A DNA stretch of 64,000 bases from Antedon mediterranea (lineage: Eukaryota > Animalia > Echinodermata), in NCBI RefSeq assembly GCF_964355755.1, contig NC_092674.1, positions 16,306,001-16,370,000 on the forward strand, written 5' to 3'. Numbering within the stretch: position 1 is the stretch's first letter; the number at the start of each line of letters is the position of its first letter. This document shows, piece after piece, positions 24,915 through 45,800 of this stretch. The translations under genes and the position numbers were made by a program. Under the pieces are notes generated by a model. It was not told the origin of the DNA and searched no databases. It worked only from the letters and a program-made list of their open reading frames with translations.

Positions 24915-25241
24915 ATGTTACTTTATGAGATATGAGTTCAGTATGTTACCCTTTATGAGATAGGAGTTCAGTAGGCCTATGTTACCCTTTATGAGATAGG
25001 AGTTCAGTATGTCACCCATTATGAGATAGGAGTTCAGTATGTTACCCTTTATGAGATAGGAGTTCAGTATGTTACCTTTTATGAGATAGGAGTTCAGTAT
25101 GTTACCCTTTATGAGATAGGAGTTCAGTATGTTACCCTTTATGGGATAGGAGTTCAGTATGTTACCCTTTATGGGATAGGAGTTCAGTATGTTACCTTTT
25201 ATGAGATAGGAGTTCGGTATGTTACCCATATGAGATAGGAG
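24915..25241. repeat. Minisatellite, 30-bp unit, ~10.5 copies, abutting the virus-like island
   Basis: ATGAGATAGGAGTTCAGTATGTTACCCTTT repeated. Confidence 0.95.
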
Positions 25242-25321
25242 GTGATCTGTATGCTAGATCGATTAAAAGCCAATCTCGTTTGCGTGTCGTTGTCGTTCAT
25301 CGGCCAGGCGTTGACGGTAGA

Positions 25322-25762
25322 ATGCACAGCGCTCTATCAAATCTGCTCGCCAGCTGTGAAAACGTACGTCTCTTGACCGAATATCATTTGGCGGCCGTGC
25401 GCAATTCGGCCACGAACATTATTGTGACCGGTCCTAAAATTCAATCGAAATCTAACGGCATGAATGATGGCGAAGATGACAACAACAACAACAACACAGA
25501 AGACTTGGTTACCGGAGCAGCCGGAGCGAATCTGATCAAAGCCAGAACCATGGGCGTTCCAATGGCAACTTCTCTACTGGACGACGTTAACAAAACGAGC
25601 ACAGTAGACGAAAAAGAGAAACTTATCGGCGATCTAGTCAGATGCAGAAAGGAGAAGGAAAAGTTGAGAAAGAGTTTTCTTTTCGATAAAAGACGTGAAC
25701 GACACTTGTTACCGGTTATGACGACCGAGGATGTTGGTGACGAGAGAAGTATGTATGTATAA
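25322..25762 (+). CDS. Hypothetical protein (virus-like island)
   Basis: 146-aa ORF from ATG with a charged helical C-terminus; no recognisable domain. Confidence 0.55.
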   Translation: MHSALSNLLASCENVRLLTEYHLAAVRNSATNIIVTGPKIQSKSNGMNDGEDDNNNNNTEDLVTGAAGANLIKARTMGVPMATSLLDDVNKTSTVDEKEKLIGDLVRCRKEKEKLRKSFLFDKRRERHLLPVMTTEDVGDERSMYV

Positions 25763-25801
25763 AAACTCAATCGGGACTCGAACAGGCATCCGCCTCTCTC
25801 G

Positions 25802-26136
25802 ATGTTCTCGTCAGAAACGTTCTATTGGGATCAATACCGGTGTCAGGGGGAGGCGCCGGCAACGTTGCACGCCACGGAACAACGTCTGCGCTTCCAGCGA
25901 AAATGTTACAGCAGATTGTCAGCGATTGTTCGGCATCGTGGCAAGATTTCATCGTCACTGCTCGACGATTGGATGAAAGAATACGGCGTACCGCTGAAAC
26001 CGTGGACAAAGAGAGCGTTTGAGGACATTGAAATGATGATGCCTCTTCTGCCCTACTTTCGATCAGGCTGTGGACGGCGTATGCTCGCCGAAATGCTCGA
26101 CGTTTCTGAACATGATTTCACGTCAACTTTTCAGCT

Positions 26137-26173
<37 letters not shown>

Positions 26174-26182
26174 TCTTCTTGA
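25802..26182 (+). CDS. Hypothetical protein (virus-like island)
   Basis: 126-aa ORF; ends in an (ACT)n tract overlapping the convergent ORF. Confidence 0.55.
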
Positions 26183-27064
26183 TCGTCGAAAGAGAGAGAA
26201 TCTGTGTTGTTTCTTTGTGGAATTCAAAACGGATGCATGCAGCACTGTCGGTCGCACTGCACCATCGGGAAAGAGAAGCGGTGCGCACGCAACAATTGTA
26301 CCGTGCTCGAGTTTTATTTTTCTGTTGACAATCTGTATTCGAAATTCGTCGACAGCAGCAGAAGAAGCAGCAGCAGCAGCAACAGACTGTTGGAAAACAA
26401 AAGTGTCTACAATGCCGTTACAGCCGATGCGTTGAACAGTGTTTTCGTGTTTCACCTCGCCTATCCATTCACCGGGCGTAGGATGCAATGGTGCCGTTGT
26501 TTTCACGAACCTTCCCGACGGTACGTGTACAGTGATGACGGTGTTGCCGTGGAACGCTACAATCGTGTTTGCGTCAAAGAACGAATGCACACTGGTACGT
26601 TTCACATTCTTTTGCTTTTCGTTTTCGTCCATGGAAATTGGATGTCTGAGTAGGACGTTCCACGTTGTTCGGGTACGTCGCAACATCACCAGAAGATGAT
26701 CACCCGCTTGATCCACGTACCATGCGCATAGGTCGCGACCGTGTTGACACGTTGCGTGCGACGTGTACAATTCACCGCCGACGCCCGTATCCAACGACTG
26801 TTCCACGCTCCACGCACCACTATCCAAATCGAACGTTTCAAATTCTTTAGCTCCACCACCGCTTAGTATCAACAAATCTTCGTTCATTCTCGTCAGGCAT
26901 ACCGATTCGTCTGTACGCTTCGTTGTAGAGTTTTGCAATCTTACGAACGTTCCAACGATGGCATTGTATCGATGAAGACGCATCGTCGCGTTCTCCTCGT
27001 CTGCTGGAGATACTGTGTACGCCAGATTCCGAACTACGGTAGTTCGATAGAACGGTGCCGTCAT
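26123..27064 (-). CDS. Hypothetical protein with kelch/beta-propeller-like segment
   Basis: 313 aa. LLILSGGGAKEFETFDLDSGAWS...SHATCQHGRDL resembles a kelch blade (GG...fD...W). Confidence 0.6.
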
Positions 27065-27103
27065 GAACGAAGCGGTAACGTGTACGTATTCTTCCAGCTG
27101 CTG

Positions 27104-27975
27104 TTATGGTATTGATGGTGGTGGAGGTGGCGTTGTTGTTCCGAAAGTGGCAATTTGTCGATGACTGTGACGAACACCCAACGCCGATTGCTCGTTCAAT
27201 CGATGATGATGAAACACTTGTTTTACATAATGTCTCAAATCTTGAACCAGTTGATTGATGGAGGAGAGACGTACAAACGCGATTCTGTACAGCATTTCCG
27301 AATCGTTCAGTAATCTGCCTCGTATGAGTTTAACGAGAGCGTGTTGTTTTCTTCGATGTTCCGTTTTGCCGTTTTTGTTAATCCATGTGTGCACAAGATG
27401 CCAAAGATACGATTCTGGCATATAGTACACACTGTCGTGCGATTTTACTTCTGTCGGCTGATCGTGTCTGGCCGTATCCAGCCAGGTCATCAACTCTTCC
27501 CACTTGAGTTCCTGTTCGTGCAGTTTAATTTTGCCAAACGTTCTGCAAATGGCCAAGATGAAATTCTGTCGGCGGTTCTTCTGGCTTTCAGCAGATCGTG
27601 CATGCACATCTCGTACACGGCAGACGTAAACACGCAGATGGTGTCCTTGCAGCCAATCTTCTCGGCTATACTCAAGCAAGAGATTCGATCCTGATAGGAA
27701 AGAGTGGCGACAAAGTATGAGTTTCTATTCGTGTTCATGAACGTCAACAACGCGTCAACAAGTTGATCGTTTGCCATTCCAATAATGTTTACGCACCCTT
27801 TAGGCTTTTTACTCTCGTACGTGGGTATTATCCAAACCATAATCGTTTTGTCTTTCGATGTACATACTCGAATCTGTTCAGATCCTTTGTAGCCCAACGT
27901 TCTCGGTCGTTGACCGACGTATGCTAGATCTTCACGCGCTTTGTGATGATTGACAAGCAAACGTTTCTCTTCCAT
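27104..27975 (-). pseudogene. Probable single frameshifted gene (MEEKRLL... joined to ...QNFILAICRTFGK...)
   Basis: Two same-strand ORFs overlap at 27490-27679 and the downstream one lacks an ATG start. A frameshift near 27570-27590 would join them. Confidence 0.55.
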
Positions 27976-28037
27976 CTTGTTGTTAACGTCCCGGTTTTCT
28001 TTGTTTGTTTTCGTAAAACACACACACACAAATAATA

Positions 28038-29024
28038 ATGGTATCACGATTCCATCCTTACGCCGCCGGTGATGGTATTAGATGGTACACGGGCATACAG
28101 CCAAATTCACCGATCAAAGCGACAGAACGTCGTGGCGAGTACAGACTCGATGAGACAGACATGACGGCCGGTACGTCGCGTATACCAAATTTCGGCGATA
28201 GAAGAAACTTTATGTATCCAACGTCAACTCACGCACAAAAGGATACGGACGGTGTTCGTGACATAACAACGTATCACGAATTCTTCAACAGATCCATTCA
28301 ATTCAATCGAGGCGATATGCTGTTTCTTTACAACGGTCAAAGGAAAATGTCTACTGCAACACCGGCTCCTGTAAACTGTTACGCGTTACCCGAACCCAGT
28401 TTTAAAGCGAGTACGGACAAGGCAACGGTGCCGTTGCCTCACCTCCAAAACATCATCAAAGAAGAGGTTACACTCGACATCAACGACTGTTTCGATCGCG
28501 ACGTGCCGCACAACGAATACATCAAAACGGTGTGTCAACGACGTGGATTCGACAGCTTTGGAACCGTACTGGCACGCATGAAAACTCCTAGAGATTTCCT
28601 CTCTTACTTTCTGCCTATCGGCTATCAGCTTTCTTTCGGTGGCAATCAATGGTTTACGAACGAATCGTATCCGTGCATAACAACGCAACATTTCGGTAAG
28701 ATGATTACAACACTGTCTGGAGTTCACGAATCGTGTCGATTGAATGCAAAAGCGGGTACTAAACTGTACTTGGCCGTTGGCATGCTACCCGGAGTAACCG
28801 ACGCTCTTAACTATCCATATCCTTCGCTGTTTTTTAGCAACGATCATTATATTCCCAATCAACTAAAGTCTATGGGATTTGTTTGTCGATCGAGAAACGG
28901 TTGTGTGACGCCGTGTATGGTGAAAGCCATCGGAGAGTTTGCTACCGATTTCTACGGTAACGTTCGCAGTCCCGAGATTGAACTGTTTATGAACAGATAC
29001 TTTCGACCGTATCACTTTTCTTGA
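28038..29024 (+). CDS. Hypothetical protein, candidate capsid triplex-like (beta-tulip) protein
   Basis: Intact 328-aa ORF with ordered motifs FNRGDMLFLY ... LPHLQNII ... FLPIGY ... ITTQHFGKM ... AGTKLYLAV ... KAIGEF ... EIELFM. The ORF is secure; the function is inferred. Confidence 0.6.
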   Translation: MVSRFHPYAAGDGIRWYTGIQPNSPIKATERRGEYRLDETDMTAGTSRIPNFGDRRNFMYPTSTHAQKDTDGVRDITTYHEFFNRSIQFNRGDMLFLYNGQRKMSTATPAPVNCYALPEPSFKASTDKATVPLPHLQNIIKEEVTLDINDCFDRDVPHNEYIKTVCQRRGFDSFGTVLARMKTPRDFLSYFLPIGYQLSFGGNQWFTNESYPCITTQHFGKMITTLSGVHESCRLNAKAGTKLYLAVGMLPGVTDALNYPYPSLFFSNDHYIPNQLKSMGFVCRSRNGCVTPCMVKAIGEFATDFYGNVRSPEIELFMNRYFRPYHFS

Positions 29025-29099
29025 CGCGACACACACACACACACACACTATATAATAACGTGTCAGAGCAAAAAAAAAAATCATTCAGATTCGTTCGGT

Positions 29100-29741
29100 A
29101 TGGGAAAGTCAAAGGATATGATTGCGGAATTGAAACAGGAACTTGAAGCTATGCAAGTTGATAAGTTGAGTATGTTACAAGAACAAGATCGACTGAGAGG
29201 AAGAGTAATCGCTGCCGAAAAGTACGCCAACTCGTTACCGCAAAACATGTACAAAGACTTGACACATGCCGCCATGGACGCGCATAGGGATGTGGTAAAG
29301 GAGGAGACACAACGATACGAGATAGACAGCCTAAAGGCAAGACTCGCTGAAATGACTGTGAAGTATGAACAGTTGCGAAGGAAACTGCCCGAAACTTTGG
29401 AATTATGTTCCAAATACAAGGGGGCGACCGAGATGATCAAACTTTTACAAATTCAATGTGAAATCAACAAACAAGACTTTATGAAGGAGCAAGCGGATCG
29501 TCAAATGTTGGCCAGAAGAGCAAACTTACCGTACAAACAAACCGTTACAGAAGTCATACGAAAGCTGAATCTATTGATCGGACAGGATTATGTTGATGGT
29601 GATCTTGAAACAGACTGTGCCGACGTCAATCAAATAGAAGCAAATGTTTGTCATGCAATTGAACCGGTGCAGTTTCCTGAAGATCCATTACTAGACACGT
29701 GCGATCAACTGATGGCCGAATACGGAGCAACGGTGGTGTGA
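29100..29741 (+). CDS. Coiled-coil hypothetical protein
   Basis: 213 aa, heptad-rich. TATA-like TATAATAA ~50 bp upstream and AATAAA at ~29783. Confidence 0.7.
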   Translation: MGKSKDMIAELKQELEAMQVDKLSMLQEQDRLRGRVIAAEKYANSLPQNMYKDLTHAAMDAHRDVVKEETQRYEIDSLKARLAEMTVKYEQLRRKLPETLELCSKYKGATEMIKLLQIQCEINKQDFMKEQADRQMLARRANLPYKQTVTEVIRKLNLLIGQDYVDGDLETDCADVNQIEANVCHAIEPVQFPEDPLLDTCDQLMAEYGATVV

Positions 29742-30520
29742 AACAATTGTGTAAAATGTCATGTATAACATAAGAAAGTAAAAATAAATGCACCACAAAC
29801 CTTAATGTCTTCTTCTTATTTCATTACTGTGCGCGTGTGTTTGTAATATCGATGACAGCTAGTAGTAGGGCCTACTGTAAACGATACAAATAACAACGGC
29901 CAGAGAAGCAAAAACGTAAATTATCTGAGTGGACGTTGATGATGGTAACAAACTATGTAATACACATGACCGACAAAAACGTAAGTGGTATTAAAAAAAA
30001 ACCAGTAGTAACTACCGAATACTTAGTTGGTGCTCAAATACCGATGATGATGATGATAATAATTATAAAGAATTGGTTGAGGCACATACCAATTAAAAAA
30101 TACACAACAATTGGTCTGCGTTTTCTCTTCACCTTTATTTCGAACGGTTTGTTTGTTGGCCTTCACTACACTTAACTACAGTTAAAGCCGCTGATGAGCC
30201 CGCGACGACGTTGTTTCTTTCCAACGTAAGCAAACTCGTGAAACTGTGCTGCCGTGAGTTAACAAAATCTGCCCCATGTCGAATGGATTTTAATTTTCTG
30301 GTAGTTAGAACAACGATCGAATTGATCCAAGACGGATATCTGGATGGTTTTAGATGTTCAGTGTGTACAAATTCATTTCCTTCACAACAGAGAAAAAAAT
30401 AAAACGATTTCAACTAACGTGCTTTCTGCATCTCGAGTACATTTTATGCGGTAGATTGTCTGTGTATGAATACAATGAATGTATATCGAACTCATAGTAT
30501 TGCAAGTGCTCGTGTGTAAA

Positions 30521-30754
30521 TTAAGCGTTTATTTGCTCAATCTCTTTGGCAAGTTTTTGTGTATCCTGACACACGGTTCTATACGTTTTAAAATCACTCG
30601 GTGACGGTACTTCGTCTTGCATCATCACCGTATCCGCCATGAATCTCTCTAAACGTCTGCAAATCAACAATTGCTCTTCACACACTCGACGATAGCTGGG
30701 TATAATGTGCTGATCGAAATGAAGACGAACCTCGTCCAACGTAATATCGTTCAT
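30521..30754 (-). CDS. Small hypothetical protein
   Basis: 77-aa helical ORF from ATG; AATAAA overlaps its last codons. Confidence 0.55.
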   Translation of the reverse strand: MNDITLDEVRLHFDQHIIPSYRRVCEEQLLICRRLERFMADTVMMQDEVPSPSDFKTYRTVCQDTQKLAKEIEQINA

Positions 30755-31044
30755 TGATGTGTCTATTGTAGCTATGCTGGTTGTGATACTCTGAAGGATC
30801 TCTTTTTGATTTCTACCGCCCTACTTTTCGAATATGTGCTCACCGTGCAACACGGGATGATAGTTTTGTGAACTAGGATCATTGTTGCAAAATTGTCTCT
30901 GCTTACTGTCAACGTCATACGAGCACAGTCTACACCCTGCTGCCATCACGGATGTTGCATCATACATACACACACACACACACATATATATAGTATGTAT
31001 ATTTTATTTTTGTCAAGCAAAACACTATGAAGGACCTATCGATA

Positions 31045-31270
31045 GATTTTCTTTTTTGCTACGAAGATCCGCACGGTCTTCTAGAGTTCGAGGACGATTT
31101 TATTTTTTGCAACGAGGATGCGCACGGTCTTCTCGAGTTCGAGGACGATTTTCTTTTTTGCTACGAGGATCCGCACGGTCTTCTTGAGTTCGAAGACGAA
31201 TTTCTTTTTTGCTACGAGGATCCGCATTGTTTGGGGTACGAGGACGAATTTTCTATTTTGTTACGAGGAG
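31045..31270. repeat. 51-bp tandem repeat (~4.5 copies) inside the virus-like island
   Basis: GAGGACGATTTTCTTTTTTGCTACGAGGATCCGCACGGTCTTCTCGAGTTC repeated; open in one frame as (DDFLFCYEDPHGLLEFE)n. Confidence 0.85.
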
Positions 31271-31364
31271 GCTATTTGTAGTACTTAAAAAGAGGCAATG
31301 AGATGACATTAGTTAGTTGATTACGCATCGTCGTATAGAGATGCTGTTCGTTTGGGAGAGAAAT

Positions 31365-32311
31365 ATGGCAGAATTAACAGATCTCTTTCAATGCGAATAT
31401 TGTTTACGGACATGGGAAGGAAACGGTCAATGTCCTTGTTGCAACTATATAGTGACTGAAATGCAGTACGACGCTGGTGATGAAGAAAGTTTACATGCCG
31501 GGGAATGTCATGATGATGATGGTGAGATGACAAGAAGATTGTACAATATTGATTTTCCAATTGATAACGATAGTATAAAGGTGCTGTTCGTTGAGGAAGA
31601 GAAGAAAAATAGCTATATGGCAGAATTGACAGATCTCTTTCAATGCGAATATTGTTTACAGGCATGGGACGGAAACAGTCAATGTCCTTGTTGCAACTAT
31701 ATAGTGACTGAAATGCAATACGACGCTGGTGATGAAGAAATTTACATGCCGGGGAATGTCATGATGATGATGGTGAGATGACAAGAAGATTGTACAATAT
31801 TGATTTGCCAATTGATAACGATAGTATAAAGGTGCTGTTCGTTGAGGAAGAGAAGAAAAATAGCTATATGGCAGAATTGACAGATCACTTTCAATGCGAA
31901 CACTGTTTACAGACATGGGACGGAAACGGTCAATGTCCTTGTTGGTACACGCGCAACGATACAGTGACTGAAATACAATACGAAAACGATCCAGTGTTGC
32001 AGTACAATAATGAAGAATGTTTACATGCCGACAACGCCCGGGAATATCATGATGATGATGATGACATCGTTGATCATGAGATAACAAGAAAGTTGAACCA
32101 TATCGATTTGGATCCAATGTTATGCGAAGAAACGTATAGTAGTAATACATCGAATGACCAATCGATTACCGATTCGCCAATAATCTTTGTTGATTCACCA
32201 CAATCGTCAGCGACGGTGGTAAGCGACGAAGAAGACCATTTGATTACGTGTGACGCGTGCATGAACGTATGGGATGGATTCTCTCAGTGTCCGTGTCTAC
32301 CTACTACCTAG
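31365..32311 (+). pseudogene. Acidic protein with four CxxC-x3-W[DE]G-x2-QCPC putative zinc-binding motifs; triplicated 252/251-bp unit with one frameshift
   Basis: ATGGCAGAATT recurs at 31365, 31617 and 31868. A 1-bp deletion near 31741 (GAAAGTTTAC vs GAAATTTAC) splits ORFs 31317-31781 and 31778-32311. Confidence 0.7.
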
Positions 32312-32589
32312 CACGTTTAAACTTACTGTTGCCTTTACACAATAGAACTACGAACATGTTTGCCGTTACGACGACTGTGTTACTCAATAGTTGGTACGTA
32401 TATTGGAATCATCGATGTGCTGCTGTTTGTTTTTGTTTTTTTTATATAGTGATTGTGAAGAATTGATAACGGGTATAAACGCTAGAGATCTTGAAACTGT
32501 GTTTTCATGATCTATCTATTACACATGTTGTTTATGGGATTGTTTACTTTGATTCATGAATTGAAACAAATCTTTTACCATAATCTAAA

Positions 32590-32815
32590 TGTAGATGTAG
32601 ATGTAGATGTAGATGTAGTTGTAGTTGTAGATGTAGATGTAGATGTAGATGTAGTTGTAGTTGTAGATGTAGATGCAGATGCAGATGCAGATGCAGATGC
32701 AGATGCAGATGCAGATGCAGATGCAGTTGCAGTTGCAGTTGCAGTTGCAGTTGCAGTTGCAGTTGCAGTTGCAGTTGCAGTAGCAGTAGCAGTAGCAGTA
32801 GCAGTAGCAGTAGCA

Positions 32816-32892
<77 letters not shown>

Positions 32893-32937
32893 GGCAGCGG
32901 CAGCGGCAGCGGCAGCGGCAGCGGTACTGCTACTGCT

Positions 32938-32969
<32 letters not shown>
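32590..32969. repeat. Compound graded microsatellite
   Basis: (GTAGAT)n/(GTAGTT)n > (GCAGAT)n > (GCAGTT)n > (GCAGTA)n > (GCT)n > (GCGGCA)n > (GCA)n. Confidence 0.95.
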
Positions 32970-33074
32970 GACAAATAAAACCAAAAGCAAAGACGTGCGT
33001 TACATTGTGTTTTTTTTTTAATAATGACTCTTGGACGAACAAAATAAATTAAAAAAAAGCTACAATAAATCGTT

Positions 33075-33964
33075 TTATATAGACAATAATGAATTACACG
33101 ACCGCGTGAAGCACGAGGTGAGGCCTCTATCGATCGTTTCTCCATTCTTCTCAATGTGTATCATTATTGGAATACGTTCGATGGGTACTCGTCTGTCGAA
33201 AAACATGCAGCACGTCCACTTTAACCGTTCATCTTCACGTTCGTAAAGTAGGCCTACAAGTTGATCGTGTTGCTTCAATCGACAATCGTTCCAATTGAAT
33301 TTCCACGAAATAGGCTCCGATTGAATTGTGACGACGTTCCTTTTTGTCTTGACCGTTCGGTTATAGATTCCACATGATCGTCGAAACGACTGCACGATAC
33401 CCGTCTCTGCGTCGGTCTCAAGAACTAACGGTTTCAGTAACGCTTTAACAAACTCGTCGGCTCTACCACCTTTTCCCCAATCTCTCAACACTCTTCCCAC
33501 CAGCGTTACACACTCGTTCGTATGCGTGCGTTATACGTTGACTGTGCGACGTTGAACAAATGCATGTGGATAGCTGGTACGAAGGAGACAAAGAGACGAT
33601 CGAAACACTTTATCGACGCCAAGTTATGTTTGTGTGCATGACTTCTGAAATCGGTGAGTACACGAACGCGATCGTTCAGTCTGTTCCATAGACGATTCAT
33701 AACGACAGATTCCAGGAACGGATAGGGATCGTAGCCGACTCTTTCTATTTCTCTTGCTCTTCGAACTACTCCATCGCTCGTCTGGAACGTTGGAAATTTA
33801 ATCCAATTGAGTCGTGGTGGTGTTGGTAAAAGTACAGGCACCGTTTGAAATGTGACTAAAGACTCGTAAACGTACACCATATCGTTACGTTTGCAAGCGA
33901 CGATTCTGTGCTGGTAATATTCGCGTTCTATTGCATCCGCGTCCAGATAGTATTCTGACAGCAT
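33075..33964 (-). pseudogene. Probable single ~295-codon gene split by a frameshift
   Basis: ORF 33964-33506 is followed by ATG-less ORF 33500-33075, whose frame is already open (RTHTNECVTLVGRVLRDW) across the end of the first. Confidence 0.55.
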
Positions 33965-34145
33965 GTCGTTAGAAAAGTACTTGGAGTGGAGACGCTACTG
34001 GACGTTTGACAGTGACTTTTCTGACGCCTGCGATCGTGACGAGAATGTAATCGATAGAGTCGATGTTCGTGGTTATATGGCCATGCAGGATGAATTCGAC
34101 GTACTATGCAAAAGATCAACGTGCGAAGCTTGGCGAATTGCCTAG
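33963..34145 (+). CDS. Short or truncated hypothetical ORF at the right edge of the island
   Basis: 60 aa; its ATG overlaps the ATG of the divergent ORF (CATG at 33962-33965). Confidence 0.35.
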   Translation: MSLEKYLEWRRYWTFDSDFSDACDRDENVIDRVDVRGYMAMQDEFDVLCKRSTCEAWRIA

Positions 34146-36841
34146 CTGTCGATTAGCCTCGACTCGACCACACATTTTGTGTGAAGAAGAGTGCGCGAAG
34201 GCATCACGTGAATTGACTTAGAATCCTAGGCCTACTGTAGAAAGTATCGTATCGCAGTTGTGTAATCACTTCTTGTTGCTATACGCTTGGGTGCACACGG
34301 AACAACAAATTTAACTGATGAATTATTCATGTTTATTTTGTGACGTTTCATGAGGGGTCCCCAACTTATGTACGAAAAAAAAATCGCAGGCCGGCTAAGG
34401 ACTAAACAATTAATAAACAAAACAACTTGGCAACACGATTTCATATTTCAACAGCCTCGATCGTACATTCAGCACTGTACGTAGGCCTACTCGATCTTTT
34501 TCATTTTGAAACAAAATGATCATTGGTTGATTCGAAATCCATATTTACATACCGCCCGCCCCATATAGCCAAATACGGTATGATAACCTACGTCATTCTT
34601 ATCGGATGTTTGCGGTCTGCAAATCGATTTCTATACGTGTATTTTCAGGCAAAAATCGCGGTCGAAATAAAAACAAATAAATAAAATAAAATAAAACAAT
34701 TCAGACTTGGGGCAAGTCTACTATGACCATAACTGCCTTACAATTTCTGAGATATGAAAAGTGTGCTCTAAACCAAAAATGTTTGTGCCGGCTATATGTC
34801 AAAGGTCAAAATTAAGGGTTTATTGACAGTTTTATGATTTTTATTACATTAGAACAAATATAAACATATACTTTGCGAGTAATTTGAGACCACAATTACC
34901 ACTCTCTGATCAGTGGTTAATGAGATATTCATATGGCCAATTTCTTGACCAGTCGTCAGAAAAGGGGGTTCTGTCCACTTTTGACAAAAGTTTCCCATTA
35001 GAGTGAATAGAAATATGGTTCTTCTGAGTAGTTTGGCACAACAAATATTCCAATACACCTAGTAGTTACCAAGTTACGCACAGTACTAACTTTGACCATA
35101 TTGACCTTTTGGCCGCTGTACTGACCAAGCGCCCCATTTTTTTCGGCCAACAGCAAAAAATTGATCTGTATTGATATAAGGAAGCAAAAAACCATTGTTA
35201 ACATAGTTTGCTAGAGCCTTAGAGGGTGCACGTAAACCCTTTCTGGCTCCCCAACTATTGGTTCAAAGTGGGTGCAAAGACATGTCCCCTAAAATTGTAC
35301 TTAGGCCTATACTTTGAATTATACAAAATTTGTGAGTTGTAAGGTAAAGACAATTTTGAAAAATAGAGCTGCTAGGTCCCCAGAAATTACACTTAGGCCT
35401 ATACTTTAAAAAGGTCTGGCTATATTATTAGGAAGGAAAATATGCCTCATTTTAGATACACCGAAACCAAAGGTACTACTGTAGTAAACATTGCTATCAG
35501 ACTACGGTTACAGAGTATTTGCGTGCTTTTGCTGATAGCTTCCGGGAATTTCCCTTTTAAAATTCCATCGAAAGCTGGACACTTGGAATACTGAATCTAT
35601 GCTTTCACTGTACCGTTGTCATACAGTAGCTAGAAAGTATTGATTTATTAATAATACTCAAACATACAATTAGCATTGATCTACAATCAACCCATTTCTT
35701 ATTTGCCTTTCCCACGCACTCTATTTCTTTTTTCTTCAGCCTGGTACGAATTTGCTATTCCACCTGCCTCCTCGACTGTTATTACGCAACATGGTGGGAG
35801 CCTCTGCAAAACTCAAGACGATAATAAATATTAATTTAAGGGTAGTTAGTCGCTTTTAAAGTTGAAAATCCTTGATTTGGCACACTTAGTTAGTATAGGG
35901 TATTGTTTTATTTTTGTTAGGAAATAGATCATATTTCTCCCCGCGCAGGGGTTTCCCCTGACCTGATAGCGCGTTTAGTGCGACACCGCGGAGTAATTAC
36001 GGCGGGGTTCCTCTAATTGGGAGCATTGCCGAGGTGCGAAATCTACACGGCGGAGCTTCCCCTTTTATACCTACACGTTCCCTGTTATTTTGTGTTTAAA
36101 TAGAATATCATTGCGTAATTTAACACACTTGTAAACTATTTTAATGTTTTGCGATGTGTGGCGACTTTGCTATGGGGCGACTTGACTAATCCCTCCTAAA
36201 TACGACGCAAAACAAATAAACATACTAGTTGACGTTTTTTAAAAGTAAATTGTCCTCTGAAAATAGGCTTGAAAACGCTATGTTATTTCTGTTAGTTACG
36301 AAGCGTTGCACGGCGTCATCAATCGATGTCTTCTGTTTCGTGAAATAAGCCTATACACGCACTAAATTATTTGTTCGTATCAGTCGTTTAATTTTCTGAT
36401 AATATAAACTGTGGACACGTACAAGTTTCCGCAGTGTGGCCTACTGCATCCTTGATGCTGATTGATTATTTTTTACACCAATCGCCTCAAAAGTATAATG
36501 AAAATGCAAAACACACACAATATATCCTATTTTGTATAATTTACACTTTATACTGGGTAATGGGGCTTGGTTATAATTGATAGGGACTTGGTTGGGCTTA
36601 GTATTTAAGAGGACTCAACTGAAGGCACACTTGGCGTTTCATAACCGTTAGCATGGCGACACGATACGTCACACAGTACACACGCCACACCACTTTTGTG
36701 AACAACATAAACAAAGTCGTAAACAACTCTTGCTTGGAGTTTGCTAGGCCTAAATTATTTTCTGTTGATTCGACGATTGGATTTACTTATTCATCTTAAC
36801 TAATATATTTTATATAGGCCTAACGCCCAAATAATGTTGAA

Positions 36842-39800
36842 ATGCCTTCCTATGTGAGTTTAAAAACTGCAAATATCGGAGTTTTGTTACCTACATTCAT
36901 CATGCAGCCTCTAGCCTTGGTGTGGTGGTAGGGCCAGGCTAGACCCTAGCTAGGCCTGGTGTGGTGGTAGGGCCAGGCTAGACCCTAGGCCTCTAGATAG
37001 GCCTCTAGGCTCTAGCCTATATATAGGCTAGGCCTAGAGGGCCTAGGCTAGGCCTTGTCTAGTAGGCCCCCTCCTAGCCTAGCTAGCTAGTACGGTTGGG
37101 CTAGCCTAGCCTAGTAGCTTGCGGGCAGGACCTCGTGTACGGTGTAGGTTACTATTAGTATTAGAGTAGCCTAGGCCCTAGCCTACTAGGCTAGGCCTAG
37201 GTCTAAACTAAGTAAAGTAGCCTAGTACAGTTGTAGTAGGCCTAGCTAGGCTAGCTAGGATGGATCAGGTAGGATTGGATGGTACTGTAGGCTTCGATAG
37301 CTACCCTGCTTGGTGGGACACCCTCGTCCGGCGCTCGGCAGTTTCGCACCTAAAACTAAACTGGGCATAATAAGACTTCTCGGTCATTCACCATTACTGC
37401 CGCGCAGCGGGTGAATGTTTTTAAATTGGATAAGCTAGAGAGATTGTGATGCGACAGTGCAGTAGCACCCTCCTTCCTACCTAGTAGGGTTAATTAATCT
37501 CTAGGCCTATACTTTAAAAAGTAAACTGCTAGGCCTACTAGCTAGCCTAGGCCTAGCTAGAGAGGCCTACACCTACTATAGGCCTAGGTGGTGGAGTACA
37601 GTAGCTAGCCTCCAAACAGGTCGGTCAGTTTTTTCCATACAATAGTTCCTCCATCCTTTCACTTTGGACTCAATCGACTCTTCGGATAGGAAGTCTGCTT
37701 ACAAACTAGGCCTACTTTGTGTCTGATAGGCAGCACAACGACACCGACGAGGCTAGCCGCGATTGACCAATTATATTTCAGAGATCATGCAGGTTATTGG
37801 ATCCCCAGATGTAGAGACAATTGAACGAAAACATTATGAAAGGGGTTTTGTTTTTTTTTCAGTTTATAATTACTGTTCCCTTGATTGAATTTATGATTGA
37901 ATTTATTTGATGCTCAACATTAATATAACGAACAGACAAAAGACAAAATAACGAGCATCAGGAACACCCATTAGGCCGGAAAAACCAGCCCATTTCCAAT
38001 GGGGTCCAAATTGCACATAACAAACAATAGAAAATACAACATTATAAAACTATAAATATATAAATATACATAAAAATAAAGCCCAGTAAAACAGAAAAAT
38101 TAAAAGAGAAAGCAAACAAGTAATGAGAAAAATTGCACGTTATCAAGACCATTATAGTTATCAAAATTATTCTAAATATAAAATATATTTATATTATATA
38201 TAAGGTCATTATATAAAAAAGGTCCACTTTTTCAGGCCTCTATGCCTGATATTTTCAAAGTATAAGTGTAATTTTTGAAGACCTGTAGCTCTTGTTTTCA
38301 AAATTTTCTTAGCTCAGTCCCAACCATAGAGCTGGTCATGGATACTTATAAATTTTGTTTCATATTTCAAAGTAAAATAAGTGCATTTTCCGAGGACCTA
38401 ACAGCTCTATTTTTCGAAAAATTGTCTTAGCTCAGTCCCAACCATGGTAGCTGGTCCTGAAGATACTGTAGTTTGTTTTATATTTCAAAGAAGGCCTATA
38501 ATCTAATTTCCGGTGACCTTATAGAAGCAACTCTATTTTTCTAAATTTTCTTAGCTCCATCCCCAAGCATGGTGGGCTGGAATTTTGTTTCATATACCAA
38601 TGTATAATTGCAATTTCTGGGGACCTAGCAGCTCTATTTTTCAAAATTGTCTTGCAGGTCAGCTCAAGGGTGTTAGTCCTGCGCATTTACAATTCACATC
38701 CCCATACAGCAACCAGCCTACACGTGCCTCTGCGATTAACGATATCTTGGCCTGTGGCCATGTTTTATGTTCGCATATTTTTTCTATGCTACAATTTACC
38801 AGATAATTAATATAGGTATATTGAAAAAGGTCACTTCATTATTAAAATTGAAATAATTGATTTACACACAGTCATCACATTGGACCTTGTGTGCAATGTG
38901 TTTTGCACACAGTATTTTATTTAAGTACCATAACAAAATGGAAATAGTTGACTACCCTAAATCTGATTAAAACGGCCTCAAACTGTGCTACAATGCACCC
39001 CAACCCTTAAAAGGGCAATTTCCGGTAACTTAGCAGCTCTAATTTAAAAAAAATTTTCTACTACAGAATTTTTGTTCCATATTTCAAATTAAGTTTCATT
39101 TCCGGGCATCGTAACAGCTTTATTTTTTCAATTTTTCTTACCTCAGCCCCAGTGACGATGGTGGGCCGAGGTCCTAGGTCCTAGGTCTTGTACATTTTTA
39201 TTTCAAATTAAGTGCCATTCGAGCAGCTCTATTTTCTCCATGAAAATGTTATCAACAGTTTTTTGTATTGTTGTGGTTTTTTTATTCGAAATGAAATAAT
39301 CTCAAAATTGTAAATTTTTGTTTGGAAAAAGCTTGAACTCATTTTTTTTTATAATTTTTATACTGTACAGATTTGTAGGAAGAGTAACCAACTTCTCAGA
39401 AGACCCATAGCACCATCACAAACATCAACAGTAGAACAAGTTGAAAAAGATTTAAATGAAAAGAATGTTATAGTGCATGAAACAAAGTCATTTGTCAGCT
39501 CATGCCAGAATTTATCTCCAGTGCCAAGTGTTGCACCAACTCTAGCGTCAGATATTGAAACAGGGGATTTTGCAGAGTTTCAGACACCAGCAAACACACC
39601 ACGCACACGAGCAAAGAGTAGGAAATCACAAAAAAATGCTTGTGCACCCCTTTTCACTGGAAAACATGATTTTAGATTTAAGATAGAGCCTAGGTATCAA
39701 TTGAGCCACAATTACTTACCTAAGGTTGAGTCACCCTCAATAGTATATCCTTATAAACCAAGAGGACCAGATGCATTTCCATTTAGAGAGCCTATGCGAC

Positions 39801-42800
39801 CTCCAGAAGTTAAAAAGGAACTTTTATATACAGACACTTTTGATATGGAGAATTTAAAGTTTCCTGAATTTACATTAAATGACTTTCAGTTTGATATCAA
39901 TTCTATTTATGAAATGCCAAAAGTTACTATGACAAAAGCTGTGCTATCAAAACAGAACTATAAGAAATTAACAACATTGTTCGCAACATTAGTTAAAACA
40001 CCAAGACAAGAGAAAGTAAACACAATTCAGCTAAAAGGTAGGATTAATATGTCCTAATAATTTAATTAAAGGCAAATGACTAATCAATGTACTGTTATAA
40101 TTTTTATTATTATAATGTTTTTTTTACATTATTTATGCATGTTAACCTATTTGTTTTGTTCAAACTTGTTTTCTTACATGTAAAACTTAACTTGCTTATG
40201 TAGTGACATGCCAACTTGTTACTTTATATATCATTTATGCTTGTGTAAGTGTGGAAATAAATATTACTTACTAAACTATTACTTATTACTAAAATATTTC
40301 ATTGTTTATAGGTGAAAATATTCCTAATGTTCAGCCCAGAATTCCTCAGTGTCAGTTGTTGGCTGAAATTGCATTAACAATTCGTCAACAAATGCGAGAG
40401 TTGATGAATGAAGGTATACATAATGATATTACTCAAGTCTATATAACATCAAACAGTCAGTTGACTCCATTGGACAAAGGCAAACCAATGCGGAAAAAAG
40501 TGTAAGTTTTTTACTTTTATTGCTTGTTATTTAACCATTTGTACTAAAATACTGTAAAGCATGCATTTTAACCTATTTTTCAACTACTGAAATTCAACTA
40601 CAAAATTATTTTGAATGGTGGCTAGGCATGCAAGAGAGAATTTTTTTTATGGATGATGATAATAATACAATACTCTTTCTTTGTTTTACAGACATGACAT
40701 GCCATATGTGAATGAAGCAATAGTTACAGTTCCAGTTGCTAAATATTTTCAAGGGGCCAAGCGTAGTTATTCTCCTTTCAGTAAGTTCATGCACATAATG
40801 CCAGCCGTTGGTACATTTGTTCTTAAGGAAAGCCTAGGCACAATCAGTCTTTCTTATTTATCTCACACTGTTCAGTTAAATGTTCATAGCCTATTTGTGT
40901 TTCATAACATTATTTTCTTCTTCTTTAATCTCCCCTTTTTTCTACTCTAATTGGATGACCCAATAACGGTGTAACAGGTGGAACATTTGTAGAGTGAAAT
41001 GTGACTCTGTAATTCCAAAAATCCATGATAATCTTTTTACTATAAGAACTCACAATACTGTCTGTCTGTTATATCCGGGTGACATAGGTTTAATGTTGTC
41101 TACTCTTGTTCCTGCTTGGCGTAATAAGATAATCAATATTTAATTTCGGTCTAAAATATGGCATCAACTGTCTTTGACACTGTGTCAACCTCAATTGTTT
41201 TTATGGTATATATTTTTATTATAACGCACCTGATTGTAGTCTTGCAATTTCATTGGTTATTGATGTTTCATTTGAAATTAGCCCTACCTAACAAAAAAGT
41301 GATAACAATTGTGATAATTAATGCACTCAAATTCACGTTCAGCTTTTCTTTAAACATATTGGGCATTTTTGCCATGCGACGTTGTTGACTAATCGCGTTC
41401 CGAAATCAACGTGTTGTCGCAGCCTCTATACTCCACATTATTGTTTGTTTGTTTAAAATAATATCTAAATAGATTCTTGTCATTTGAATTGAATAATAGG
41501 TACATTTGATTCACATTAAAACAGTAACATTTAATTGGCTTTTTGTAAATATATGTTTTTTTATATTAAATATTTTATTTATTTGTATATTTTTATAAAC
41601 ACACCTACTGTAGTTTCAATTATGTCAACAACTGACCAAACAATCTTAGGCCTAACCTAATACTAATACAGTAGCAAACTGATCTTTAATTCTGTTTTTT
41701 TCCTAATGATTCCACTTCTTGTAGTAATGTACCCATTAATTAATCACAATACTACAAACGATCTAAAACTAATTTAAATGCTTATTTTGGTCTAATTTAA
41801 TACATACATGCCAACATCTGAAGTTAAAAAAACGGGAAGTGGTGTTTTTTGTCAACAGCACCCTCTGTCTATTATTCGAGATGTAAGGAGTGCAGTGTGT
41901 GACATCATAAGCAGTATCACATGGTGGCTATGTGAGGGGAATCCCTTTTCTGTTCATAAAAAAATTATGACTGCAGATGGTCGTGCAATGGCTTAAGAAT
42001 CATAAATTTGCTTGTGAAGCCTTTTTGTTGTATTTTAATGCAGAAAACAACACATTATACATCAAAATTCAGTTACCTTTGTAATCAGGGAGAAAATGTT
42101 AATCGGCATGTATGATATCTCTAAAAAAAATGATATATCTCTAAAAAAATGATATAGGCGGCACTGTTTGATTTATAAATAAATTAAATGGTCCTAAAAA
42201 AATATTTTCCGTTTGCAAAAAAAAGATTTTTTTTTCGACTTTACTATTTAATGATTGTGAAATAGTGCATACTACTTCATGCCATGTGACCCACAATCAT
42301 CTAATTAAATGACAGGAATTTATTTAGGTGTTGTAAATATAACAAAACAAATATTGAATGTTTTGTATTCGTTGAATGGAGAGAATATTTCATTTGATGA
42401 AAAATTGATGGCTCTGTTTCATTAAATGAAATAGAACAGTCAAATCATGAAATATTCTCACTAAGTATCCACCTCTAAATCAGTCATTATTTGTATATTA
42501 TTTTACAGCTATAGTAATTTTAATTATGGTTTTAATGAGCTGAATGGAAAATTCAGTGAACTATTTTTTTTACAGATGATTCTGACCAGTCTTCAACAAT
42601 AACCCCAGCAGAGCTGGCTATTCTAGATTGCCTAGTGAATGGTGGTCTTGCATTGAGCTTAAAAGTATGTGTTCTTATGTCAGGTGACTATTGCCTCACA
42701 TTAATATCTGAGCTCTCAACATCTTACTCTTTGTGTTACTTCATATAAATGTCAAACAATGAATCATGTGAATAAAATAGAATTCAAAAATATAATTTGA

Positions 42801-45800
42801 ATAGAAATTATATGTTTAGTGACTTTCTCAAATGATAATATGAATTTTCTATGAGTACAGTATACTACCTACCTAAAAGAAAGAAAAAAGAATTAAAAGT
42901 TAATGAAACTAAAAAAGCAGTGTATGTACCTTAGTTGAGCATTTCAAATATTATTATATTAATTATTATATATATATAATATTGTCTCTATTTTTAATTG
43001 AATTAATTTTGTCACATTTTAGGCTCATTTTATTGCACAGTTACCCGAGATTACACCTCTAAGGACAACTTTAACCTACCTGAACCTTTCTTTCAATAAC
43101 TTTTGGGTAAGTCTATTTCAGTCTCATTAAATTAATGTGTTTTAACAGAGTTGTAACAAAATAGATTGACAGTAATTGTATTACATCAGGCATGGATCCT
43201 CCACCTAATTTTTTTTGGCTTATAGCCCTGGGCCTGGTCTACTACTAAAGGTTTTTTTTTGTACCTTTTGTATCAATTTCCTTCAGCGTGTATAGGCTTT
43301 GTCAAATGTTTTACCCTACCCTGACGTAATTTGTACTTTATACTATGTACATTGAGAATTCTCCTGTAGACCACTAACCTTGCGCTGATGGCTAGGGGTT
43401 AGCGCCTGCAATAAGGTTGATGTTTATATGCCACAACTCTACAGATGTAGGGCGAATAATGTATTTGAATAACTGTCAATAACTCAATACAACAACATGA
43501 AAATCAAAGCAACAACTAACGAACAACGCCAGCCCAAGAGGGTGCACTGGCGTGACTACTTTTCTTTCTTCTTCATAAAAAAGTATCAGTTTTTATCTAA
43601 TACAATTTCCTTTAAAGCAATACATGAGAAAAGCAAAATATATGGTAACCGGGTTCACAAAATCAAAGCTAATAATAAAATAATGTTAGTCTGTGTATAA
43701 TTTTTAAAATAATAATATCGTGCAAGATCGTAAAACCACTAGTCCATAATAAATTCAGCAAATCGGTTTGGTAGGTGGTGAGAGCGTTGAGGTCTTAAGC
43801 AAGACTGAGTTGGTTGGTTCATCGCGAAACTGGTTGTAGGGCGGATCACTATCACGGTGTTTGTGGCACCGTCGACAAGCGGAGAAGATATCTCGACAGG
43901 AATAACAGGCTGAACCGGGGCTACCACGGTAGGTCCAAATGTATAATCCTCATAGTCTGATCCCTTTACTCTGGTACTTTCGTGAAGTAAGCGTACTAGG
44001 AGCAAGTATAGAGCTAGGAACTTTAAAGCATTCGGATCGCTTAACACAGTAAGATGTGTTTCGTAACTGGGTTCCACTGAACTTGCGAACGCAACACCAT
44101 GTACCATCAACAGATACGACAAGGTATCTCTTACGAGCGTTAGACTTGTTAAGGTCTGCATAAAGGTATACGAGATCACCCACCTCCACAGGAGTTCACG
44201 ATTGGGAGCTTTTGAAATTTGACTGTATTTGTGATTAGCGGTGCGCGTTGAGTGCTGTTCTTTGGATAAGCTCGAGGTCAGAGAGTGGGATCTGTTCGTG
44301 GGAAAACTGGTCACGCTGGGTCCACATCTCACGAGCGGATAAACCACGGGAGCGAATGCATGAGTTGAGTTGTGCGGTTGCAATAGGCGATATAAAACCA
44401 GCATCAGGATCCAAACGAAGTAGCTCATCTTCCATGGAGCTTTAACAATTGTGCTTCGGGAAATAACAGGACAGTAGTTTGCGATCTGGCCTAGCATGAG
44501 CTCGAGCATGTGTACCCTTTTCTGAGCAGTACGTCGACGTGCTCTAGGGACAGCGTCATCATCGTCCTCAAATAGGCGGAGGGATCTGGTTTTGGTGGCC
44601 CATTGTGTGCCTTCTATAAAGAATGGAGCAAAATTTTCATCCAACAAAAGTGTATAAATAATGTTCTGCTGCCATGACTCAAATGAGTTTATTGTTTCAG
44701 TTTTGGTTAAGCTCCACTGTTTAGGAGCTCTGTTAACGTTCGCCATCCTACCAGCTATATGTGCTGGCTGGTCGTACGCCTCTGTGCGTTAGTGCGGTCT
44801 CGTAGATAATACGGTCTGGTTTTAACAGTAGGTTCGAATATCTTGGGCCGCCACCATGCCAATAAGGTTGATGTTTATATGCCACAACTCTACAGATCAC
44901 ACATAGACCGATGTAATGCCACTAATGTATTTTAATAACTGTCAATAACTCAATACAACAACATTTTTTCCAAGTTTCAAGTTTCAATTTATTTATCAAA
45001 CACAAAAAGTAAAACAGGTGATAAAATAAGAACCATTGTGAACGAAAGGAAGACCAATAAGAGCATACAGTAGATCATAACAAATGGTCACCTAAAAAAA
45101 ACAGAAAGTATAAAAAGTAAAAAATAGTTTATATGCCACCAACATTAAGATAAGTGCGGTTACAATGAACCACTTGAAGGCGATCCCACAAACCCTGTAA
45201 TGTTTAAGTTTTAGTAAAAGTATTTTGTGGTCTATCGTGTCAAAAGCCTTCGAGAGGTCCAGGAAAATTCCAAGAGTATGGCACTTTTTGTCTAACTCGG
45301 TCACAATTTTATTATAGGCTTCAAGTATCGCCATGTATGAGGATGTTTAGATCTAAAACCAAATTGGGAATTGTGTAATAAATTAAAGCGAGAAATAAAA
45401 TTATATAGTCTTGTGTGGACAATCTTTTCTAATAGTTTTGAAAAGACGAGAAGAAAAGATAGCATCAGCTTTTAAGTGATCATGACCACAACTGGTACCA
45501 GATTTTAATGATTGACATAGTTCAATTACTTCATTAGAATTTGTTGGGGTAAAATATAATGAATTTATTGGTGAAATAACATAAAATCCTTGTTTGATGA
45601 TTGCATTTTAGAGGCCAGATTAGATCCAATATTAACAAAATAAGAATTAAAATGGTCAGAAATTGTACATGGATCAGATAGAAGAATTATTTATTTTAAA
45701 TGTTCCAGGAAGAGTATGAGTTTTATGACAACCTAAGATAGTGTTAAGAATGTTCCAAGTTTGTTTAGAATTGTATTTACAACTTTCAAGTTTTTCGGAA

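Follow-up and report, generated by a model that had tools for sequence, protein, structure and literature searches.

A decayed fragment of a probable undescribed herpes-like virus, with a predicted triplex gene, in an animal genome

The analyzed window, the whole 64-kb stretch of DNA, contains an 8.9-kb island whose base composition differs sharply from its surroundings, which raises the question of where this DNA came from and whether it is part of the genome in which it is found. The island is probably what remains of an undescribed herpes-like virus in the germline: a dead copy that is truncated and covers only part of the virus. The product predicted for its sole intact core gene is capsid triplex subunit 1 (Tri1).

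From 25,240 to 34,142 the GC content was 0.437, the observed/expected ratio of CpG was 1.33 and the CpG density was 63.6 per kb, and none of 150 outside windows of the same length exceeded 27.5 CpG per kb or a ratio of 1.0. The compositional island described in a previous sequence-only reading is therefore well founded. The host DNA had also been called CpG-poor; depletion is present, but it is only moderate in the 9-kb flanks (0.77 and 0.62) and strong depletion is limited to 1-11 kb of the window. The change point of the CpG density was found at 25,251. Contigs of the runs X1, X5 and X8 lose the match at 25,240 and those of X1, X5 and X9 at 34,140-34,142, in each case continuing with different letters. 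The right edge, earlier placed at 34,230, was corrected to about 34,142, where the contigs of three runs diverge and a host repeat begins.

Twelve ATG-initiated ORFs of at least 120 aa were counted in the island (microsatellite excluded, overlapping frames included), whereas 200 dinucleotide-shuffled versions had 0.57 such ORFs on average and never more than 3. The earlier number of about 12 ORFs holds as a count, but these are pieces of about nine genes (Table 1). The distances between genes, which include −60, 62, 75, 83 and −2 bases, are short or overlapping as proposed, a packing in line with a viral origin, and the internal tandem repeats were confirmed with periods of 51, 251 and 3-6 bases. 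The AATAAA signals noted earlier exist at 29,783 (+), 30,398 (+) and 30,528 (−), but the 5+5 sites of the island match the expected 4.5+4.4, so there is no enrichment and the sites carry no evidential weight. No further piece of the viral element was found elsewhere in the window.

Table 1. Features of the island and its borders (window positions).
Feature	Position	Strand	Description
Left flank	24921..25241	.	30-bp minisatellite, multi-copy in host runs
Whole viral fragment	25240..34142	.	Each end interrupts a reading frame
G1	25240..26182	+	Function unassigned; 5' end likely cut
G2	26123..27975	-	Single gene of ~620 aa, earlier read as three ORFs; frames fit
G3	28038..29024	+	Intact 328-aa ORF; predicted capsid triplex subunit 1 (Tri1 / VP19C type)
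G4	29100..29741	+	Intact 213-aa coiled coil with NEMO/ABIN (UBAN)-like segment
G5	30521..30967	-	~148 aa; in-frame stop 30,821-30,823
G6	31027..31281	+	84-aa frame of 17-aa repeats (51-bp period, 4.5 copies); putative gene
G7	31365..32311	+	Acidic protein with repeated Cys-x2-Cys ... Cys-Pro-Cys units; 251-bp period
Compound microsatellite	32551..32969	.	3-6-base units, inside the fragment
G8	33075..33964	-	Conserved gene of ~280-300 aa, function unassigned; frameshift near 33,509
G9	33963..34142	+	5' part of a gene cut at the right junction; flank supplies the stop codon
Right flank	34143..34700	.	Very high-copy host repeat; summed depth >100,000 in X1

For G3, nine relatives were found, none of them named, including a full-length relative at 56%. 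The profile search yielded ten hits, nine of which were kept (P0013, a COX4 match, was removed as false), and the alignment for folding comprised 14 rows, excluding P0009, whose C-terminus departs. An alignment of 2 rows gave a pLDDT of 31 and no usable model, whereas the final AlphaFold model reached a pLDDT of 71 and a pTM of 0.73. This model was matched by Foldseek (E 5.5e-7), and the VIA comparison with herpesvirus Tri1 gave Z scores of up to 13.2 and an rmsd of 3.5-4.0. Among 48,161 PDB representatives, a Z score of at least 8 was reached by nine chains, all of which are herpesvirus Tri1 (Z 11.5-13), followed by phage cement proteins with at most 6.9. In each capsid entry the best-matching chain carries Tri1 numbering. 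The likeness covers residues 68-326 of G3 with about 200 aligned residues. G3 differs from herpesvirus Tri1 by an identity of only 8-18%, by its N-terminal 70 residues, which lie outside the model, and in that no Tri2 partner was found in the window. Sequence-level searches with G3 found no match to herpesvirus Tri1, and the top two matches of the BFVD fold search are unnamed. The corresponding genes are VP19C in HSV, ORF20 in VZV, BORF1 in EBV, ORF62 in KSHV, UL46 in HCMV and ORF112 in OsHV-1. In herpesviruses, one Tri1 and two Tri2 molecules sit between the capsomers and brace the HK97-type shell; in the source virus, the G3 product would have served in the same arrangement.

Two-subunit triplexes are described only for herpesviruses and mirusviruses in the accounts of PMC10132985 and PMC11565193, so the predicted Tri1 fold supports the assignment of the island to the eukaryotic Duplodnaviria. 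Both the triplex-like ORF and the Duplodnaviria assignment of the sequence-only reading are thus borne out by structure prediction (AlphaFold and Foldseek). As stated there, MCP, terminase, portal and polymerase are missing: no candidate ORF for any of them, for a maturation protease or for Tri2 was found in the 64-kb window. The placement at order level is limited because it is based on one predicted fold from the 14-row alignment; an affinity to herpesviruses appears fairly likely and one to mirusviruses improbable, with the rest falling to another lineage.

The source could also be a mirusvirus or a third animal-infecting lineage of eukaryotic duplodnaviruses outside the Herpesvirales, which we regard as rather unlikely. 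This would fit with the presence of both triplex proteins reported for the Mirusviricota (PMC10132985), and one published mirusvirus host survey left out animals. Endogenous forms of the Mirusviricota have been reported as well (PMC10132985, PMC12768974, PMC10827195). The fold libraries hold no recognisable mirusvirus entry, hence no competing match could appear, the 2-row profile reached no named herpesvirus Tri1 among 1.84 billion proteins, and the relatives group on contigs of about 25 kb. The reported hosts of the Mirusviricota are unicellular and the island lies in an animal context, although animals were outside that one survey. None of the mirusvirus hallmark genes (MCP, terminase, portal and, in many members, RNA polymerase subunits) was found in the window. 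No named malacoherpesvirus protein was among the sequence matches.

Members of the Herpesvirales have an HK97-fold MCP with a tower, a maturation protease, a family B polymerase, a genome of 100-300 kb and an animal host. For the source virus, an animal host is suggested by the flank, which holds a spliced GT-AG gene and the BEL/Pao-type domains DUF5641 and DUF1759. On contig L001 (JGI), a Tri1 relative adjoins an ORF with a sub-threshold likeness to Bcl-2 (Pfam E 2.2e-5), which also points to an animal host.

No protein of the island exceeded a curated cut-off in Pfam or NCBIfam, and matches in PHROG were weak. PDB sequence searches with G3, the G3 profile, G2 and G1 yielded nothing useful. 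G4 has a coil similar to that of NEMO and ABIN, which belong with optineurin to the UBAN proteins; its match to Pfam CC2-LZ (E 1.2e-6) reached 29.3 bits, which is below the curated cut-off of 35.3. Among PDB sequences, just two matches at E<=1 were found, NEMO (E 0.45) and TNIP2 (E 0.65). Its product is a candidate decoy for ubiquitin chains. The earlier statement that no host gene or transposase is present holds for the transposase, of which no ORF was found, but must be qualified for G4 and its sub-threshold resemblance to the NEMO/ABIN coil. G2 is possibly of the BTB-BACK-propeller (kelch-like) type, as judged from a Pfam BACK match (E 0.08-0.096, below cut-off) and from BTB and propeller segments seen by eye only. 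WD40 matches in the PDB sequence searches were sums of short repeats of designed proteins and were rejected. In the source virus, genes neighbouring G3 may have acted on host ubiquitin signalling, through the NEMO/ABIN-like coil and perhaps a kelch-type adaptor, as far as these weak matches indicate.

G1 contains a stretch that looks BRCT-like by eye only, and had no match in Pfam, PHROG, NCBIfam or PDB. G5, read through its stop with X, matched no family, and G6 gave nothing above cut-off in Pfam and PHROG. For G7, zinc-finger matches were weak and below cut-off. Both halves of G8 match one 281-aa relative (58% and 69%), of which three matching stretches were found in IMG/VR with no locus recovered. 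A kinase fold for G8 (phosphomevalonate kinase, E 0.093) was not reproduced with a profile, and its identity as Tri2 found no support, since the relative matched the Tri1 family profile with a probability of 0.1. The best ESM Atlas scores (0.84 and 0.78) were treated as leads only and rejected.

Five genes carry stops or frameshifts, and both island ends truncate frames. The frame of G1 is open from 25,205 and resumes beyond an in-frame stop at 25,760-25,762, which is probably a lesion. G2 has a frameshift near 27,552, where the window differs from all four runs compared, and a stop at 27,104-27,106, where it differs from X1 and X5. At 30,821 in G5 the window differs from X1, X5 and X9, and at 33,509 in G8 from X1; the frameshift of G7 lies near 31,740 inside the repeats, with different frames on either side. 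Four lesions are missing from contigs of other runs, and unlike the island genes, the host exons align free of gaps with a spliced contig. PMC5822658 treats the decay of ORFs as indicating integration. Between the window and X1, 19 gene differences (from the best-supported 40 of 283 and 40 of 114 rows) comprise 7 silent and 11 residue-changing differences and one at a stop, a pattern as under neutral decay.

Island DNA was found in runs under three organism labels from four studies, where it extends past both ends, and no RNA datasets were among the listed holders. The divergence of the island compared to that of the host was 0.29 vs 0.17% (X1), 2.3 vs 3.2% (X5), 2.5 vs 4.6% (X8, host figure from 151 bases) and 0.33 vs 0.52% (X9). 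The contig depth of the island compared to the adjacent host gene was 861-1045 vs 288 in X1, 261-592 vs 190 in X5 and 2-5.6 vs 2.9 in X8, which is a hint and no copy number. In X9, which has a spliced host contig, the island depth of 2-6 is similar to that of an intron contig (2.9) and is not taken as a sign of expression. An X5 contig joins 31,325 to 31,573 in the G7 region, and X5 cover is low over 33,240-33,770, a hole that is not proof of absence. The cut ends, the lesions and the longer copies of near-host depth and divergence elsewhere identify the island as a dead fragment of a longer element, which is likely inherited at low copy. The integrated virus proposed earlier is thus supported by copy-specific gene decay and by the depth and divergence of the island in other runs, both of which resemble those of the host, but truncation, pseudogenisation and the longer, less damaged copies had been overlooked, as had the herpes-like elements already published from invertebrate assemblies.

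The longer copies could instead represent a free, persistent herpes-like infection (episomes), with only the decayed piece of the window integrated. X1 contigs have open frames at every checkable break, a host-virus junction was not observed for the longer copies, and the depth ratio varies (~3, 1.4-3 and ~1). However, the depth stays within a few-fold of the host in three non-RNA runs, divergence tracks the host, and X5 contigs join across stretches of 0.25-2 kb, as decaying or variable copies would. Episomes are therefore considered improbable. Even less likely is an assembly chimera, in which viral DNA from an infection was misjoined to a host contig: both junctions touch repeats, which are prone to misassembly, and no contig bridging either one was among those listed, but five broken genes in 9 kb are unlikely for a replicating virus and the lesions are specific to the window copy while host exons are clean. 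A host gene cluster or the cargo of a known transposon is scarcely credible, since the weak resemblance of G4 and G2 to host ubiquitin-pathway proteins is set against the predicted Tri1 fold, densely packed genes that lack introns, no transposase ORF in the window, no terminal inverted pair among the 25 longest of 68 inverted repeats and no shared flank of at least 5 bases at the island ends.

For the germline copy of a herpes-like virus, we infer that the 8.9-kb piece probably entered passively, either during break repair or through partial duplication beside host repeats and not via an integrase of its own, and has decayed neutrally since. Longer open-frame copies would persist at low copy in the same organism and two relatives, likely by inheritance. 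A more far-reaching interpretation, tentative but conceivable, is an undescribed family-level herpes-like lineage that forms an inherited, low-copy, gene-intact provirus in an invertebrate clade, sheds decaying fragments and carries a captured NEMO/ABIN-type ubiquitin-binding decoy against NF-kB signalling. If true, this provirus lineage would be an invertebrate counterpart of Teratorn, whatever its entry route.

Molluscs are the only invertebrates with well-known herpesviruses. The island differs from the telomere-integrating herpesviruses (HHV-6, MDV), as no TTAGGG array was found within 23-36 kb. Herpes-like elements have been reported for fish (Teratorn) and, among invertebrates, for amphioxus, Capitella, a ribbon worm and a starfish, and the island would be a new divergent member of this kind. 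The Herpesvirales-related regions of starfish and ribbon worm (10.1101/2025.04.19.649669) are likewise herpes-like DNA inside invertebrate genomes, apart from named families; they are described as identified through a DNA polymerase together with three or more marker hits, whereas the island has neither polymerase nor sequence hit. Teratorn and Teratorn-like viruses of teleosts (PMC5601938, PMC5822658) are similar in being low- or multi-copy, intact and degraded, and common to related species. There, Teratorn is described as the fusion of an alloherpesvirus with piggyBac, bearing terminal inverted repeats as well as target duplications, none of which was seen in the window copy; alloherpesvirus Tri1 scored low against the G3 model (E 0.021). 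The malacoherpesvirus-like elements of amphioxus and Capitella (PMC5552708) are also herpes-like sequences in non-mollusc assemblies, with integration unproven in that account. Their matches to OsHV-1 proteins have very low E-values, whereas G3 matches OsHV-1 by fold only (Tri1, E 0.012, weaker than orthoherpesvirus Tri1).

In the literature searched, which included few subscription journals, neither this lineage nor the two unnamed BFVD accessions were found described, and no report of a viral mimic of UBAN proteins turned up. The fragment marks a lineage with no sequence-level link to any named virus and bears on the standing question of the gap between herpesviruses and mirusviruses. The less damaged copies of the three related organisms would allow the lineage to be placed by means of their polymerase, terminase and ends, and these would also reveal how a herpes-like genome enters an invertebrate germline.

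The nine unnamed Tri1 relatives provide a marker family for locating the rest of the lineage. In a tree of 10 relatives only small groups were resolved, and IMG/VR gave no match for A1, P0006, P0007, P0018, P0014 and P0001. An ORF beside the Tri1 relative of L001 looks polymerase-derived by eye and had no Pfam, NCBIfam or PDB match. The contigs of the relatives range between 0.7 and 60 kb, several of those with Tri1 relatives being 24-60 kb in length. An ENA contig of 24,652 bases is listed for a Tri1 relative, and one of identical length for a cluster mate of the G8 relative.

The island at 25,240-34,142 has a GC content of 0.437, a CpG observed/expected ratio of 1.33 and 63.6 CpG per kb, whereas the maximum in 150 island-sized segments elsewhere in the window was 27.5 per kb. 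The compositional island claimed by the sequence-only reading is therefore genuine. With the microsatellite left out and overlapping frames counted, 12 ATG ORFs of at least 120 aa were found (200 dinucleotide shuffles: mean 0.57, maximum 3). The about 12 ORFs of that reading reduce to about nine genes; nine gene units (G1-G9, left to right) cover 77% of the island (G5 in its shorter form). The AATAAA sites named in that reading are present as well, but without enrichment (10 seen, about 9 expected from composition). No second comparable island was found in the window; apart from one host exon, the long frames outside the island are retroelement remnants.

For the 328-aa product of G3, whose ORF spans 28,038-29,024, no family match was found in Pfam, PHROG or NCBIfam and no sequence match in the PDB. 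One of 339 candidates was a full-length relative (56% identity). A search of 1.84 billion proteins with the profile of these two yielded 10 at E ≤ 0.001, nine of which were kept; none of the nine is named past "hypothetical protein". The tenth, a COX4 repeat, was dropped. AlphaFold2 gave no usable model with a 2-row alignment; the 14-row alignment resulted in a pLDDT of 71 and a pTM of 0.73, with a core at residues 71-328. Foldseek identified 49 PDB matches at E ≤ 0.001 (best E 5.5e-7), and those listed were all herpesvirus capsid entries. BFVD gave 12 matches at E ≤ 0.001. The top two are unnamed, the other 10 carry names of herpesvirus triplex-1 or capsid proteins, and the Tri1 proteins of OsHV-1 (ORF112), abalone herpesvirus and eel herpesvirus ranked lower (E 0.012-0.021). 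ORF112 is described as a triplex-1 homologue (PMC11565193). A Foldseek-independent search of 48,161 chains yielded nine with Z ≥ 8, all herpesvirus chains with Tri1 numbering (Z 11.5-13.0, rmsd 3.6-5.3, 187-207 aligned residues), followed by phage cement proteins at Z ≤ 6.9. A further structure comparison agreed with herpesvirus Tri1 (Z 13.2). The ORF suspected to be triplex-like thus has the predicted fold of capsid triplex subunit 1 (Tri1).

Both triplex proteins are described as conserved across herpesviruses and mirusviruses, and known tailed phages as lacking them (PMC10132985). Together with the G3 fold, this points to a eukaryotic duplodnavirus as the probable source, whereby the Tri1 fold does not separate herpesviruses from mirusviruses. 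No sequence search linked the island lineage to any named virus. The hosts reported for mirusviruses are mainly unicellular (PMC12768974), and animals were excluded from one host survey (PMC10827195). For the coiled coil of G4, two PDB matches were found at E ≤ 1, NEMO and TNIP2. G2 has a weak BACK match, and its layout may be read by eye as BTB-BACK-propeller. On the JGI contig L001, a Tri1 relative adjoins a Bcl-2-like ORF (E 2.2e-5, below the cut-off). Bcl-2-like, NEMO-like and BTB-BACK-type genes suit a virus of animals and so tilt the call towards Herpesvirales. Membership in this order is likely, resting on one of its defining genes.

A 281-aa relative matched both halves of G8 (58% and 69%), so G8 is one gene. 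In ENA, a contig 24,652 bases long is given for both a Tri1 relative and a cluster mate of the G8 relative. This is probably the same contig, and the G8 and Tri1 genes therefore likely keep company in a related virus. The largest contigs of the Tri1 relatives P0002/P0015, P0007, P0016 and P0019 comprise 24,652, 24,564, 27,047 and 25,100 bases, perhaps reflecting either a small genome or chance of assembly; that of one further relative comprises 60,180 bases.

The island is present in nine runs from four studies under three organism labels (A, B and C), and four runs (X1, X5, X8 and X9) were compared in detail. At the left edge (25,240), contigs of X1, X5 and X8 cease matching and continue with other sequence for up to about 400 bases; at the right edge (34,140-34,142), those of X1, X5 and X9 diverge and continue for up to about 630 bases. 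In the window, a minisatellite with a 30-bp unit adjoins the left edge, and the right edge meets a repeat of very high copy number. The left edge lies within the open G1 frame, and the right flank supplies the G9 stop codon. Four lesions occur in the window copy only (Table). Sequencing error is unlikely as their cause, since the host exons have no gap compared to a spliced contig. The window copy is dead and truncated. ORF decay has been taken as a sign of integration (PMC5822658). The island is real, viral and decayed, and very likely endogenous.

Table. Features of the island and its surroundings (window positions)
Feature	Position	Strand	Remark
G4	29,100-29,741		intact coiled coil; NEMO CC2-LZ model, E 1.2e-6, below cut-off
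G8	33,964 to about 33,075	-
Frameshift	near 27,552		window only; all four runs differ
Stop	27,104-27,106		window only; X1, X5 differ
Stop	30,821-30,823		window only; X1, X5, X9 differ
Frameshift	near 33,509		window only; X1 and natural relative differ
Stop	25,760-25,762		probable further lesion; absent among differences listed
Frameshift	G7 repeats		probable further lesion; absent among differences listed
G3 5′ end	28,038-28,061		basic-x2-Pro-Tyr motif, also opening the 56% relative
Skipped stretch	29,835-30,364		530 bases
78-aa ORF	29,939-30,175		within skipped stretch; probably no core gene
Microsatellite	32,551-32,969		graded, repeat unit drifting stepwise
CATG	33,962-33,965		common to start codons of G8 (-) and G9 (+)
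Host gene	36,739-40,501	+	spliced, GT-AG intron ends; 2.6 kb right of island
349-aa frame	43,739-44,788	-	no Pfam match
Retroelement pieces	52,850-59,201	-	decayed; DUF5641, DUF1759 above cut-off
AT-rich segment	1-11,000		GC 0.20-0.25, CpG o/e mostly <0.35, unlike rest of window

Divergence was counted on the longest of the listed pieces, and host pieces within multi-copy repeats were excluded. Differences between window and run amounted to 22/7,657 (island) and 6/3,625 (host) for X1, 148/6,400 and 55/1,697 for X5, 88/3,566 and 7/151 for X8, and 6/1,817 and 7/1,336 for X9. The element therefore diverges about as the host does. The simplest reading is that A, B and C inherited it from a common ancestor; a ubiquitous low-level infection is a less likely source of the longer, less damaged copies. 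No contig among those listed bridges a junction of the window copy or any other. Contig depth of the island compared to a neighbouring gene was 861-1,045 (collapsed repeat 1,729) vs. 288 in X1, 261-592 vs. 190 in X5 and 2-5.6 vs. 2.9 in X8. These depths, which are not copy numbers, hint that each genome carries a few copies. The 530-base stretch is present in X1 (A) and skipped by joined contigs of X5 and X8 (B, C); it was either inserted in lineage A or lost in B and C.

Tri1 of the source virus would brace the capsid shell by joining two molecules of its partner Tri2. This arrangement is described as established for orthoherpesviruses, and alloherpesvirus triplexes as not modelling as heterotrimers (PMC13030845). 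G4 may bind ubiquitin chains and dampen NF-kB signalling. Germline entry likely preceded the split of A, B and C, after which the element would have persisted in few copies. The window piece likely arose next to host repeats, either through passive capture or through partial duplication, and would be decaying neutrally (7 silent, 11 residue-changing and 1 stop-site among the 19 differences listed). That a new family exists as an inherited provirus with intact genes and carries a ubiquitin decoy is a tentative and rather doubtful proposal. The element in the window would work like known endogenous herpesviruses. Unlike Teratorn, the teleost endogenous alloherpesvirus fused to piggyBac, the window copy has no transposase, as had been claimed from the sequence, and no terminal inverted repeats or target duplication of at least 5 bases. 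It also differs from HHV-6 and MDV, for which telomeric integration is described (PMC12096621), in having no telomeric array.

The motif opening G3 presumably resembles a PY-type nuclear import signal. The ORF at L001:3-905 (minus strand), head-to-head with the Tri1 relative, had no database match; in our reading it resembles a family B polymerase N-terminus and may be an inactive derivative. The minus strand of the microsatellite reads as an Ala/Thr/Ser-rich frame and is perhaps part of a mucin-like gene. Either the G8 or the G9 start at the common CATG may not be the true one.

Three exons of the host gene are joined in one X9 contig; its large exon had no Pfam match. The 349-aa frame looks by eye like a retroelement gag remnant, and the DUF5641/DUF1759 pieces are presumably of a BEL/Pao-type LTR retrotransposon. 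The segment at the left end of the window may be a methylated gene body.
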